Part shown: one piece after another, positions 20,400 through 57,181 of the stretch
How positions within the stretch are numbered: the first letter of the stretch is position 1
How the letters are laid out: every line of letters starts with the position of its first letter
From: a virus
Length of the DNA: 64,000 nucleotides
Reading direction: 5' to 3' (one strand)
Virus record (IMG/VR): IMGVR_UViG_3300015371_000009
Location: 1-64,000 of that record
Translations under genes and position numbers: made by a program
Notes under the pieces: model-generated
The model's input: the letters and a program-made list of their open reading frames with translations, nothing else
Told to the model about the DNA's origin: nothing
Database searches by the model: none

Positions 20400-21110
20400 T
20401 CAGGATGTCGTTGTTGTTGTTGATGCTGTCGCTGCTGGTTTGGATTTCGCGCTGCGTTGCTGCGCCTTGTTGATGGCTGTCCAGGCGTGGACGATGCGAT
20501 CCATCTGCTCAGCGAACGCGGCGGTGCTTGGCCACATCTTGGCTTCCAACAAATCGGCGAGCTGCCGCGCGTGGAACGTGGCTTTCAGCCCGCTGTATCT
20601 CCGGTTGAGGTCTTGCTGATGGTCGGTCAGCGCGCGGCCGTGCAGATGATCGAGCCCGCCCTTCAGCGCGATCGGCCTGCCGTCGCTGGCTGAAGTGGCG
20701 AAGCCGCGTTCGATCTTGTCGATCTGATCAAGCGGCAGCCGCACGACTTCGGAAATCTGATTGCGCTCGTAGCCGTACTCCAGCAGACGGATGATCGCGT
20801 TGCGCACCGAATACTGGTCGAGCTGATCGCCATGTCCGACGTTCAGCCGCACGGCGTCGGCATAAAGGTCGGCCTCACTGGCGTAGGTCTTCAGTTCGAC
20901 TTCGCACTCGGTGAGGTCGAGCCGTTTGTAGGCGAGATAGCGATGACGGCCGTCGACCAGTCGGTACGTCACCGAGTCCACAGTCAACGGAGGGAATGTG
21001 GCTCCAGCTTTCGCGGCATGAACCAGCCGCGTGGTGTTGAAGTCATTGACGCCAGAGCCTCTCGGATAAATGCTGTCGTCGATGATGATCTGACTGAGAA
21101 GCATTTTCAT
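20400..21110 (-). CDS. ParB/Srx-like domain protein directly downstream of the array
   Basis: IYPR...FPPLTVD...LVDGRHRYLAY; ATG lies about 5 nt after the last array unit, whose AGGGA could be its RBS. Confidence 0.8.
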   Translation of the reverse strand: MKMLLSQIIIDDSIYPRGSGVNDFNTTRLVHAAKAGATFPPLTVDSVTYRLVDGRHRYLAYKRLDLTECEVELKTYASEADLYADAVRLNVGHGDQLDQYSVRNAIIRLLEYGYERNQISEVVRLPLDQIDKIERGFATSASDGRPIALKGGLDHLHGRALTDHQQDLNRRYSGLKATFHARQLADLLEAKMWPSTAAFAEQMDRIVHAWTAINKAQQRSAKSKPAATASTTTTTS

Positions 21111-21115
21111 TTTTC

Positions 21116-22060
21116 AATTCCCTGCCTTGCCGTGCCACGCCCCGCCGCACCCGACCGTGCCCAACCGAGCCGGGCCCTGCCGGAGCCGCAAAAAATGGAT
21201 TGGACGAATCCCTGCCTTGCCTTGCCAGACCTCGCCCCGCCACGCCCGGCCTCGCCAGACCTAGCCGCGCCCAACCCGGCCTCGCCCGAAAATTGATTGA
21301 ACGAATCCCTGCCTTGCCTCGCCGTGCCCCGCCCAGCCGAACCAGACCCGACCGCGCCGAGCCTTGGCTTGCCCAGCCGCGCCCTGCCGGACCCAACCTG
21401 AAAATTTGAAAACAATTCCCTGCCTTGCCGCGCCGCGCCAGACCCAACCGCGCCGTGCCATGCCCGGCCGCGCCTCGCCATGCCGCGCCCCGCCGTAAAA
21501 AATTGATTGATCGAATCCCTGCCTTGCCGTGCCTCGCCATAGCCGGCCGCACCTGACCAAACCCAGCCCGGCCGCACCCAGCCGCGCCTCGCCGCAAAAA
21601 ATCGATTGAACGAATCCCTGCCGTGCCACGCCGCGCCTCGCCCGACCAGGCCACGCCTCGCCAAGCCCTGCCTAATAAGGCCGTCGCAAAAATCGATTGA
21701 ACAAATCCCTGCCTTGCCCTGCCGTGCCCGGCCGCGCCTCGCCACGCCTAGCCACGGCTTGCCTGACCCCGCCGCAAAAATTGATGAACTATTCCCTGCC
21801 TCGCCTTGCCGTGCCCCGCCGCACCCGGCCAGACCGCGCCGAGCCGGACCTGACCAAGCCAAGCCTCGCCTGACCTGACCGCGCCAAAAACCTGACTGCA
21901 ATCTTTGAAAACAATTCCCTGCCTTGCCGCGCCGCGCCGCGCCTCGCCCCGCCAAGCCTTGCCAAGGCTTGCCATGCCTCGCCGTGCCTCGCCAAATTGC
22001 TGCCGTTGAAAAATTCATTTGAACTATTCCCTGCCTTGCCGTGCCTCAGCTCGCCCCGCC
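21116..22060 (-). ncRNA. array of 10 (GGY-NN)n units; putative guide RNAs
   Basis: About 141 phased pentamers, about 134 with RCC on the plus strand (GGY on minus), in 10 blocks separated by linkers like aaaaatcgattgaacgaatccct. Confidence 0.85.
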
Positions 22061-23639: not shown

Positions 23640-24090
23640 GCTCCAGACATTTTCGTCGGAAGCTCGGCAGACCACCGTCTAGAGAACGGGTTCCAATGTC
23701 GATAGGGAGCAAAATCGGGGAGCAGGAACGCCGCACGCAGAACAAGAAGGTCGCCTAGCTCGTGTCGCGGATCATGGGCAACCTATTGCAGATGACAACA
23801 TGAAACTTGATGCAGATAATTTGCTAATGAAATGCAGATGAAAGTTCAGATACGCCGATGGCATCGGCATAATTGACATTGCAGGGTTCGAATTTTTGAT
23901 CCTTTGGATTACAAAACTAACTCTTGTGAAAATGCACATCTGCGTTTCAAATTTCGCAATGCGGCTTCGCTTGCCTAAGCCGGTCAGCGGTCGCAAGGTA
24001 AAGCTCTAAGCTGACTTTTTGCTATCGATTCAACGCCGCGCCGGGGTTCGCCCCTGCGTGCGCGGCATCCTATTACCGTCAGGGAGCACA
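23640..24090. promoter_or_regulatory. AT-rich divergent control region
   Basis: Strand switch between leftward and rightward operons; low GC; TTGACA at about 23873. Confidence 0.5.
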
Positions 24091-55430: not shown

Positions 55431-55733
55431 ATGGACGTAACGGAAACTCAGAAAAGTCAGTTGGCCGCCAGCAAAGTGGCTGCCGAAAAGACGCTCCAAG
55501 ATCAAGAGCGTGTTGCCAAAGGCAAGCCGACGCCGACTCAGGAAGAGAATGATTTGGCGCGGGTCGGTGTTCATGTGACGGAGCATGAAGACGACGGCAG
55601 CGGGCCCGATCCGAACAATCCGGTCGGACTTGATCAGCGTCAGATCGAGGCCAAGCGGCCGGGACAGAACTACCAGACCCGTGCAGCGCAACCGGCATCG
55701 CGGCCGGCGGCAACGACTCATCGAAGCGAATGA
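55431..55733 (+). CDS. hypothetical head-region protein
   Basis: AGGAG RBS; KPTPTQEEND; YQTR. Confidence 0.65.
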   Translation: MDVTETQKSQLAASKVAAEKTLQDQERVAKGKPTPTQEENDLARVGVHVTEHEDDGSGPDPNNPVGLDQRQIEAKRPGQNYQTRAAQPASRPAATTHRSE

Positions 55734-57181
55734 ACGCGAAGTCACTCATTCGCCGAATGTTGTCCCCCTTGGTCGCGAAAGCGGCCGAGGGGGAATACCG
55801 TCCTGGGCCATGGCAGCTGCCGATCACCGGCGGCTGGCTGTCCAGCGACGTCGGCCAGTATTGGAATTGGTGGCAGCTCGGCTACAACCCGGAAACCGGG
55901 GCCGGCCGCTCCGCCATCGTCGAAGCTTGCGTGTCGGCGTACGCGCAAACCATAGCCATGTGCCCCGGCGATCACTGGAGGATGAACAAAAAGAAAGGTC
56001 GCGATCGCGTCACCAATTCGGCGCTCGCGCGTATCCTGCGCTATCCCAACGACTACCAATCGATTTCCGATTTCCTGCTCAATCTAGTGCGGCAGCTGTT
56101 CCTTGAGGGCAACGCCTATTGCTTGGCGCTGCGCAATGACCGCTTCGAAGTCGACGAATTGCACTTGATGGATTCGCGGCAGTCGGCGCCGCAGCTCGCC
56201 AGAACCGGCGACGTGTTCTATCACCTCGCCGGCAACAGCGTCATCCAACGCCGGATCACCGGGCCGCTGATCGTGCCGCAGCGTGACGTTTTGCACGTGC
56301 GGCTGGCGTGCGACCGGCGCTCGCCATGGCCGCTGCTCGGCCAGTCACCGCTCGAGGCGGCATTTTCTGATCTTGAAGTCGGCGACGCGCTGCAGCGTCA
56401 GCAGATTCAATATTACCTGAACCAGGCGCGGCCCTCCGCGGTGCTGTCGACCGACCTCGACCTCGACAAGGACCAGACCCAATCGCTGCGCGATCGCTGG
56501 AACGATCAAGTGCGCGGCATGGGCTCGGGCGGCACGCCGATTCTCACACACGGCTTGAAGGTGCAGCCGTGGGGCACTGCGCCGAAGGACGCGATGATCG
56601 CCGACATCGCCAAGCTCAGCGACCAGCGCGTCGCTCTGGTGTTTCGCGTGCCGCTGCAAATTCTCGGGCTCGGCGGCACACCGCTCAGCTCGACCGAAGC
56701 ACAGATGCAATGGTGGATCGCCAACGGTTTGGGCTTTGCACTGAATCATGTTGAGGAGGCGATCGGCGTGCTGTTTCAGTTGGCCGGTCAGCCCGATGAG
56801 TACGTTGAATTCGACACCGCGGCGTTGCTGCGCTCGGCATTCAAGGATCGGGTCGAGGCATTGGCGCGCGGCGTGCAGGGCGGCATTTTTGCGCCGAACG
56901 AAGCGCGCAATCAGGAAGGCTATGACAGCGTGAAGTTCGGCGATGAGCCGCGCGTGCAACAGCAAGTGGTCCCGTTGTCCGCCGCCGCCGAAATCCCCGC
57001 CGCTCCAGCACCGCGGGCGGCGCCGCCCGCAGCCGGGCAACCGGCACCGGTTGATGGCGCCAAGCCCGCGCCCGCTCAAGAAGCCAAGCCCGCCGCCAAG
57101 GAATTTTCCCATGACGACATCAAACGGGAAGCCCGACGAGTCATTGCTTCCGCCGCCAGAATCGGCCGGCGTTTTAACTGA
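55730..57181 (+). CDS. portal protein (HK97 family)
   Basis: VEACVSAYAQTIA, GNAY, GQSPL, VFRVP, PNEARNQEG. Confidence 0.92.
   Translation: MNAKSLIRRMLSPLVAKAAEGEYRPGPWQLPITGGWLSSDVGQYWNWWQLGYNPETGAGRSAIVEACVSAYAQTIAMCPGDHWRMNKKKGRDRVTNSALARILRYPNDYQSISDFLLNLVRQLFLEGNAYCLALRNDRFEVDELHLMDSRQSAPQLARTGDVFYHLAGNSVIQRRITGPLIVPQRDVLHVRLACDRRSPWPLLGQSPLEAAFSDLEVGDALQRQQIQYYLNQARPSAVLSTDLDLDKDQTQSLRDRWNDQVRGMGSGGTPILTHGLKVQPWGTAPKDAMIADIAKLSDQRVALVFRVPLQILGLGGTPLSSTEAQMQWWIANGLGFALNHVEEAIGVLFQLAGQPDEYVEFDTAALLRSAFKDRVEALARGVQGGIFAPNEARNQEGYDSVKFGDEPRVQQQVVPLSAAAEIPAAPAPRAAPPAAGQPAPVDGAKPAPAQEAKPAAKEFSHDDIKREARRVIASAARIGRRFN

Follow-up and report, generated by a model that had tools for sequence, protein, structure and literature searches.

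A ten-unit GGYNN array next to a Cas7-like gene in a temperate rhizosphere phage is very probably a VIPR guide-RNA locus

The virus record IMGVR_UViG_3300015371_000009 of IMG/VR is 87,982 nt long, and we analyzed its positions 1 to 64,000, a stretch of 64,000 nt referred to here as the window. We found that the minus strand of the window carries, from 22060 down to 21117, ten blocks of GGYNN pentamers. Reading along the minus strand, the genes at this locus are a YqaJ/RecE-like exonuclease gene, a gene for a RAMP (Cas7-like) protein, referred to here as vipr, the array itself, a gene for a 236-aa ParB/KorB/Noc-like protein, and a RecT gene, with an integrase gene further to the left. The stop codon of vipr (22063-22061) abuts the first pentamer of the array. 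A first-pass annotation of this DNA had proposed that the array encodes guide RNAs with a non-contiguous code, on which the Cas7-like protein polymerizes, and direct reading of the minus strand from 22800 to 20900 confirmed the position and strand that it had given for the array.

Unit boundaries were set by anchoring on the recurring sequence GGCAGGGAWT, and the ten units delimited in this way (u1 to u10) contain 149 pentamers in total (Table 1). The triplet GGY was found in 133 of the 139 non-terminal pentamers, while all six of the remaining internal pentamers are GCY (GCTGA, GCCTT, GCCGT, GCTAT, GCCAA, and GCTCC). The terminal pentamer is GGAAT or GGATT in each of the ten units, i.e., a purine occupies the Y position. 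All ten units end in GGCAG-GGAWT and eight of them end in the longer GGCAA-GGCAG-GGAWT, as had been described before. Since the last three dinucleotides of each unit are near-constant (AA, AG, and then AT or TT), we assigned them to a 3′ handle rather than to the guide. The units are separated by T-rich linkers of 16-32 nt. Other details of the first-pass annotation needed adjustment. Its ten blocks correspond to the ten units found here, but their starts and counts were off by one or two pentamers at some unit ends. The scaffold is near-invariant, as it had claimed, but the deviating triplets, which it put at 7 of about 141, are here six GCY among 139 plus the ten terminal GGAWT. Finally, the T-rich linkers are present, but their position preceding each unit is not separable here from the published placement as a 3′ tail. 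The six GCY pentamers, each with C in place of the second G, lie at 22050-22046, 21968-21964, 21758-21754, 21543-21539, 21368-21364, and 21186-21182, and GCY may be a tolerated scaffold variant. The short unit u1 is possibly vestigial.

Table 1. Coordinates (window numbering) of the array units and of the genes and sites around them.
Feature	Start	End	Strand	Description
u1	22026	22060	-	short: 7 pentamers, variable NN in only 4, then the constant handle
u2	21914	21993	-	16 pentamers, variable NN in 13
u3	21791	21885	-	19 pentamers
u4	21704	21773	-	14 pentamers
u5	21613	21672	-	12 pentamers
u6	21514	21593	-	16 pentamers
u7	21415	21494	-	16 pentamers
u8	21304	21398	-	19 pentamers
u9	21207	21286	-	16 pentamers
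u10	21117	21186	-	14 pentamers; 6 nt from the parB-like ATG; without the usual T-rich linker
vipr	22061	22657	-	198-aa RAMP (Cas7-like) protein
Own-copy site homologous to the inferred target of u2	22805	22842	-	ETEVKFRLQDSEA; 18/26, below 80%
YqaJ/RecE-like recombination exonuclease	22681	23745	-	Pfam YqaJ E 1.3e-11; phrog_434 E 5.8e-49; upstream of vipr
Promoter-like site TTGTCA-16-CATGAT	23771	23798	-	consensus match only; head of leftward operon, divergent region
parB-like accessory gene, candidate vap	20400	21110	-	236 aa, ParB/KorB/Noc-like; phrog_1033
RecT-family single-stranded-DNA-annealing protein	19251	20390	-	Pfam RecT E 1.1e-32; phrog_148

We found that the pentamer signal is specific to the array. 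Nowhere else in the window, on either strand, did in-phase GGY reach 60% in a 60-nt stretch, and the minus-strand background outside the array had a mean of 0.13 and a maximum of 0.42. Block-shuffled contigs gave only 0-4 calls of at least five units. Sequence identity within the array at lags of 5, 10, and 15 nt was 0.52, 0.48, and 0.45, respectively, compared to 0.26 at a lag of 3 nt. We also calculated an information profile anchored on the 3′ handle, in which GGY upstream of the handle is not presupposed. Across nine units of this array, G1, G2, and Y3 carry 2.0, 1.86, and 1.33 bits while N4 and N5 carry 0.51 and 0.38 bits; across 61 units of related loci the corresponding values are 1.53, 1.50, and 1.21 bits versus 0.17 and 0.05 bits. 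The profile and the 5-nt periodicity bear out the earlier description of a constant scaffold with freely varying dinucleotides. A 5-nt repeat with interleaved variable positions and no contiguous spacers is also, as had been stated, not a CRISPR repeat-spacer array. No Rfam family, hammerhead included, matched the array region up to an E value of 1, and no promoter-like or terminator-like sites were found within it.

An open reading frame of 303 codons (21107-22018, minus strand) runs through the array, which could be taken to mean that the region encodes a Gly/Arg/Ala-rich repeat protein. We consider this scarcely conceivable, as all three minus-strand frames of the array are nearly open (1, 3, and 3 stops) and the repeat has a period of 5, not 3. 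The GC content by codon position is flat in the array (0.63/0.69/0.66), while the usual dip at position 2 is present in vipr (0.63/0.47/0.68) and in the parB-like gene. The 303-aa translation has no match in Pfam, and near-identical phages vary in unit number and length, variation that would throw any reading frame out of register. The first-pass annotation had singled out translation of the region as evidence that would count against guide RNAs; the 5-nt periodicity and the flat GC profile are not those of a translated region.

The protein encoded directly upstream of the array, which had been called Cas7-like, is homologous to the solved SUSP1 Vipr protein (PDB 36pp, 36pp_D, ‘SUSP1 Vipr protein’; E 5.6e-10), which at 27% identity is the closest characterized protein, and it matches SUSP2 Vipr by BLASTP with an E value of 6e-17 and 27% identity. 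We found 118 matching records of cultured phages at about 27-28% identity, nearly all of them SUSP/Felix-O1-like phages of enterobacteria. The protein belongs to phrog_4652 and has no match in Pfam, NCBIfam, or PADLOC. Foldseek identified a Cas7/Csm3 fold, and the best neighbors in that library are Csm3 proteins of RNA-targeting type III-A complexes. In the SUSP1 structure, G1, G2, and Y3 are held by H17, E71, M72, R138, D177, W178, and R179, while K33 contacts the target backbone (10.64898/2026.04.26.720927). The seven residues that hold the triplet align to H35, E76, M77, R142, D182, Y183, and R184 of the window protein, where Y183 in place of W178 is still aromatic, and H35, R142, D182, and R184 are invariant among 42 Vipr homologues. 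These conserved contact residues suggest that one subunit may bind each GGY and display NN at this locus as well.

Systems of this kind have been described in three 2026 preprints, namely a discovery paper in bioRxiv (10.64898/2026.04.26.720920), a cryo-electron microscopy structure paper (10.64898/2026.04.26.720927), and a paper on competition between phages and satellites (10.64898/2026.10.15.759431). Viral Interference Programmable Repeat, or VIPR, systems carry out RNA-guided DNA silencing with a Vipr RAMP protein, vrRNAs composed of at least four, typically 9-16, YNNGG repeats and a constant 3′ tail, and a vap accessory gene; NN pairs with double-stranded DNA with one base skipped per unit, and most targets are coding and place the skip at the wobble base (10.64898/2026.04.26.720920; 10.64898/2026.04.26.720927; 10.64898/2026.10.15.759431). 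The same three preprints include a census of 664 loci of seven types (I-VII), mostly viral or proviral. In the SUSP1 structures, one protomer binds each repeat and GGY is sequestered (10.64898/2026.04.26.720927), and the systems of the discovery paper do not target themselves (10.64898/2026.04.26.720920). Only a small number of systems have been studied experimentally, above all SUSP1 and a prophage of Pseudomonas fulva. The first-pass annotation had named phage VIPR systems that combine a RAMP-like protein with RNAs of alternating GGY and NN, and such systems are indeed published (10.64898/2026.04.26.720920).

Our data indicate that the locus is very probably a real VIPR locus of the published kind, i.e., the guide-RNA array of a temperate phage, and support the interpretation offered in the first-pass annotation, every testable part of which held. 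The locus resembles the type II systems (SUSP1/SUSP2 and the P. fulva prophage) in its homologous Vipr that keeps the GGY-contact residues, in its tandem GGYNN pentamers, whose NN is hypervariable and which close, at a constant 3′ end, with a GGR triplet, in its minimal phage-encoded composition of vipr plus one accessory gene, in the lack of self-targeting, and in near-targets that are coding and have a wobble position at each skipped base. It differs from them in four respects. The accessory protein is a 236-aa ParB/KorB-like protein, whereas SUSP2 has a 146-aa gene in the vap1 position; the units are followed by a 16-32-nt T-rich linker without a conserved fold, whereas type II units have a 40-60-nt pseudoknot tail; the ten units lie head to tail, too tightly for each to have a promoter of its own, whereas those of SUSP2 are set apart by longer conserved spacers; and the locus belongs to the exo/recT operon of a GC-rich temperate phage from soil rather than to a lytic coliphage. 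Compared to the backbone filaments that Csm3/Cas7 form on crRNA in class 1 CRISPR-Cas systems, three of five guide nucleotides are sequestered here versus one in six there, and the guide information is interleaved with the scaffold here while the spacer is contiguous there. We therefore place the locus as another VIPR and not as a new kind of system. Its distinctive features are the packed ten-unit array, the short unstructured 3′ element, the ParB/KorB-like gene, the exo/recT position, and guides seemingly aimed at recombination genes of relatives, and the published type scheme may cover these. The locus offers a clean example of VIPR from a very different setting, with ten guides in one operon, and allows the generality of the one-nucleotide-skip code and of silencing beyond type II, as well as the roles of accessory proteins, to be addressed.

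We next considered loci of vipr homologues, of which 27 came from IMG/VR, four from genomes, and three from metagenomes; the encoded proteins have 26-57% identity to the window Vipr. GGYNN arrays were found on the vipr strand in all 34 loci, directly upstream and/or downstream of the gene. In five complete or near-complete RecT-related phages that lack vipr (328 kb), there were no arrays of at least nine units. A search for GGYNN runs beside homologs had been suggested with the expectation of a conserved scaffold and different NN strings, and this is the pattern that we found; homologous genes without an array, which would have spoken against guide RNAs, were not among the 34. We also found that guides change far faster than the genes around them. 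Loci L009 and L011 have vipr and parB-like genes that are 98-99% identical, yet only 1 of 8-11 guides is common to both and the unit number differs, and L007 and L009, which are 91-92% identical, have no guide in common. Scanning metagenomes for near-identical phages returned distant relatives only, and a scan with the window's own exonuclease returned no close relative. At three loci with distant Vipr homologues of 26-32% identity (L029:6290-6845, L030:6285-7001, and L031:2210-2534), the units are only 0-4 nt apart, and these abutting units look like the published ‘staggered’ array architecture. The window array, which has no Rfam match and has linkers of 16-32 nt, is of neither the hammerhead-interspersed nor the staggered type.

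The co-occurrence with vipr also bears on whether the region is a non-functional pentanucleotide microsatellite or a recombination hot spot that lies behind a RAMP-like gene by accident. Tandem Repeats Finder does report overlapping periods of 5, 10, 15, and about 91-99 nt, and metagenome contigs break in the array, one of them joining 21016 to 21479. We give this explanation almost no credence, since homogenized units would be expected from a microsatellite while three positions are fixed and two are near-random here, the units carry a constant 3′ handle and a linker, and the same layout accompanies vipr in all 34 loci, which span 26-57% protein identity, and is absent in vipr-less relatives. 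The joining contig is 420 nt long, comes from a 2016 rhizosphere run, and connects the parB-like gene to u7 with 462 nt skipped. Contigs from other runs break inside the array as well, several of them continuing into different GGYNN units, which may reflect variation of the array within the population or assembly artefacts in a repeat.

We asked which sequences the guides match using the published one-nucleotide skip, i.e., the NN dinucleotides of each unit joined by one wildcard, on both strands and with a threshold of 80% NN match. The scans covered the phage's own contig, 31 vipr loci, five RecT-related phages, and 35 exonuclease loci, or about 1.4 Mb. None of the nine usable guides had a match of at least 80% in its own contig, and none exceeded the shuffled-guide null there. 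Skips of 0, 2, and 3 nt, scanned in the five RecT-related phages, were no better than the 1-nt skip, and local-segment scoring of guides gave nothing above its null. The top matches of u2 recur at a single homologous exonuclease site, close to the 3′ end of that gene, always in sense orientation and with the skipped base on codon position 3. The protein segment at this site reads ETE(I/M)KFKLGDAAA. The scores at this site are 18/26 in the phage's own copy, 19/26 in L060 and in G002, and 18/26 in L007, L067, and L062. Read as NNx codons, u2 is a plausible allele of this YqaJ-exonuclease segment, and homologues have the base of u2 at seven of the eight positions where the own exonuclease copy differs from it. 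We regard an aim of u2 at the exonuclease site of relatives as a strong lead, not proof. Together with the recT matches described below, it gives a first indication of what the guides may be aimed at, namely exo/recT genes of close relatives with the own copy spared through mismatches. A weak lead comes from u4, whose first seven NN units match the baseplate-hub gene of G002 perfectly, while the own homologue scores 11/22. The baseplate-hub gene (contig positions 67726-68868, a phrog_177 homologue) and the portal gene (window 55730-57181, phrog_12) have close counterparts in G001 and G002, which lack vipr, and these phages are therefore plausible competitors with the same host range.

Guides of related loci gave further matches to the recombination module. 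A guide of L007 (9148-9227) matches 24/26 positions of L067:14989-15026, which lies in an open frame immediately following recT, and a guide of L009 (4933-5002) matches L067:14094-14125 at 19/22 in recT; both matches are sense and wobble-phased, which fits inter-phage targeting of the recombination module. A guide of L021 (5774-5838), which is a distant VIPR phage, matches recT, at the segment encoding DLDDLIRRDD, in three vipr-less phages (L035:10595-10623, L036:10601-10629, and L037:10625-10653) at 18-19/20. All skips fall on the wobble position and the three targets differ from one another at skipped bases only; by score alone the family-wise chance of this match is about 0.2. Other candidates were set aside. 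The match of u10 to L024 at 19/22 was judged to be due to chance, as it lies in a TnpB-like transposase gene and is out of wobble phase, and the matches of u6 to the portal gene and of u9 to a gene of L001 are single conserved sites at the null level. The TnpB/IS605-OrfB-like gene of L024 (7803-8960) lies about 1.4 kb from the VIPR locus of that phage, and the u10 match is in its conserved SILDAGWG region.

The orientation of these matches is informative as to the kind of nucleic acid that is targeted. The fold library places Vipr nearest to Csm3 of RNA-targeting type III-A complexes, and the closest solved folds outside VIPR are type III Csm3/Cas7 backbones, so the system might be thought to target RNA and not DNA. 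The near-target of u2 and the matches of L021, L009, and L007 have mRNA sense, and therefore pairing with the transcript is impossible and the template DNA strand is the only partner left for the guides. In addition, SUSP1 VIPR binds double-stranded DNA and represses from either strand (10.64898/2026.04.26.720920). These data argue for DNA targeting and make RNA targeting very improbable.

Several results weigh against the assignment to VIPR, or against parts of it. None of the nine usable guides has a target of at least 80% in the about 1.4 Mb of related phage DNA. The summed score of u2 at the exonuclease sites was reached by 0 of 200,000 unit-order permutations, a figure that is inflated because the site was picked after seeing the matches. 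At the level of the clade, matches exceeded those of shuffled guides only modestly (12 versus 3-7). SUSP1 K33, the contact to the DNA backbone, has no clear counterpart in the window Vipr and aligns to A42 in a shortened segment of lower confidence. The 236-aa accessory protein is unrelated in sequence (E 0.11) to the 146-aa product of the SUSP2 gene 3′ of vipr, which is the vap1 position. RNAalifold found no conserved structure among 29 units of the clade, whereas the SUSP1 tail is a pseudoknot. Lastly, no run recorded as RNA was found to contain this stretch.

The lack of a target at the 80% threshold also invites the explanation that the units are decoys, anti-VIPR RNAs, or a decayed array that titrates or redirects Vipr and has no DNA targets of its own. 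With only four variable dinucleotides in u1 and GCY instead of GGY in six internal pentamers, some decay would be consistent with the array, and there is precedent in that redirecting vrRNAs have been published and Escherichia coli satellites encode solo vrRNAs (10.64898/2026.10.15.759431). We consider this improbable. The array is not a solo locus, as an intact vipr, with its contact residues conserved, immediately precedes it; guide turnover is rapid between near-identical phages; u2 and several guides of relatives show wobble-phased near-matches or matches to phage genes; and the target search covered about 1.4 Mb only.

The 3′ element of the units differs from the SUSP1 and SUSP2 tails. 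Across the clade, units end in GGCRR-GGAT, after which come a T-rich stretch and, in many cases, a second GATTT, and in the window the constant handle and a conserved T-rich element follow nine of the ten units. Folds of the 3′ ends of single units were no better than those of shuffled sequences, while the tails of SUSP1 and SUSP2 contain a stem-loop and a pseudoknot. The change of GGY to GGA is among the scaffold substitutions that abolish silencing of green fluorescent protein (10.64898/2026.04.26.720920), and the pocket for Y excludes purines (10.64898/2026.04.26.720927). GGA, as the terminal triplet of every unit here, therefore plausibly marks the end of the filament, i.e., it might act as a filament stop. 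A short and apparently unstructured 3′ element bears on how vrRNAs are processed and capped.

Taking the published systems and the conserved features together, we infer transcription, processing, filament assembly, DNA silencing, and a role for the accessory protein at this locus. Transcription of a leftward early operon comprising the exonuclease gene, vipr, the array, the parB-like gene, and recT would start near 23.8 kb, in the divergent promoter region. The array portion of the transcript, roughly 950 nt, would be cut within the T-rich linkers to give about ten vrRNAs, and Vipr protomers would polymerize on each of them, one per pentamer. GGY would be gripped by conserved residues of the G-loop, the thumb, and helix 1, leaving NN exposed, and the constant GGCAA-GGCAG-GGAWT end, with a purine for Y in the last triplet, would mark where the filament ends. 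The exposed dinucleotides would pair with double-stranded DNA by reading NNxNNx, usually in coding DNA and with wobble bases being the ones skipped, and this binding would silence transcription of competing phages. At least one guide (u2) would have as its target the recombination exonuclease gene of closely related phages while being mismatched to the phage's own copy. The ParB/KorB-like protein would be the accessory factor of the clade, probably acting on DNA at or around the bound site.

This accessory protein has a ParB/Srx-fold N-domain with a DGRHRYLA (GxxRxxA-type) motif followed by a helical helix-turn-helix region. Its family profile matches ParB, Noc, and Spo0J, and its AlphaFold2 model (pLDDT 92.2) matches ParB, KorB (8qa9), Noc, and pNOB8 ParB-N in Foldseek. 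Since 24 of 31 loci, with Vipr identities as low as 26%, keep the parB-like gene beside vipr, we consider it the accessory gene of this clade. The protein resembles the CTP-dependent clamps of the ParB/KorB/Noc family in its N-domain, helix-turn-helix, and GxxRxxA-type motif, but the residues at the ENLQR box read, by eye, LNVGHG, and CTP hydrolysis is therefore doubtful. Neither parS nor a ParA partner was noticed among the genes examined. No paper that links vrRNA and ParB emerged from a literature search, and the main texts of the VIPR papers do not mention ParB. Outside of Vipr, no other RAMP or cas-like domain was found in the flanking genes scanned, and the exonuclease, ParB-like, and RecT neighbors matched no Cas/RAMP family or PADLOC defence model.

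We speculate that, in this clade of soil phages, a ParB/KorB-like DNA clamp replaces the SUSP1-type Vap1. The filament would mark recombination or structural genes of a rival phage and the ParB-like protein would load there and spread, turning a footprint of 30-50 bp into long-range silencing; the module would reside in the exo/recT operon because this is where related temperate phages chiefly fight each other. We hold this to be rather unlikely as it stands. If it were true, and if the ParB-like accessory lay outside the published vap1-6, the locus would represent a subtype of VIPR that has not been described before and whose effector logic is new.

The only promoter-like sites that we found lie at 23771-23873, in the divergent region upstream of the exonuclease gene, and the parB-like gene has no separate Shine-Dalgarno sequence. 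Within 21110-21126, the constant end of u10, GGCAGGGAAT, stops 6 nt short of the parB-like ATG, and the AGGGA of this handle may double as its ribosome-binding site. The virus record encodes an integrase, a portal, a baseplate hub, and the RecT/exonuclease genes, and the sources that contain the stretch are rhizosphere metagenomes; the carrier is a GC-rich temperate phage from such metagenomes. The first and last 100 nt of the contig (window 1-100 and contig 87883-87982) are each present twice, while 200 nt are not, which suggests a terminal direct repeat or a circular assembly and, with it, a complete phage genome.

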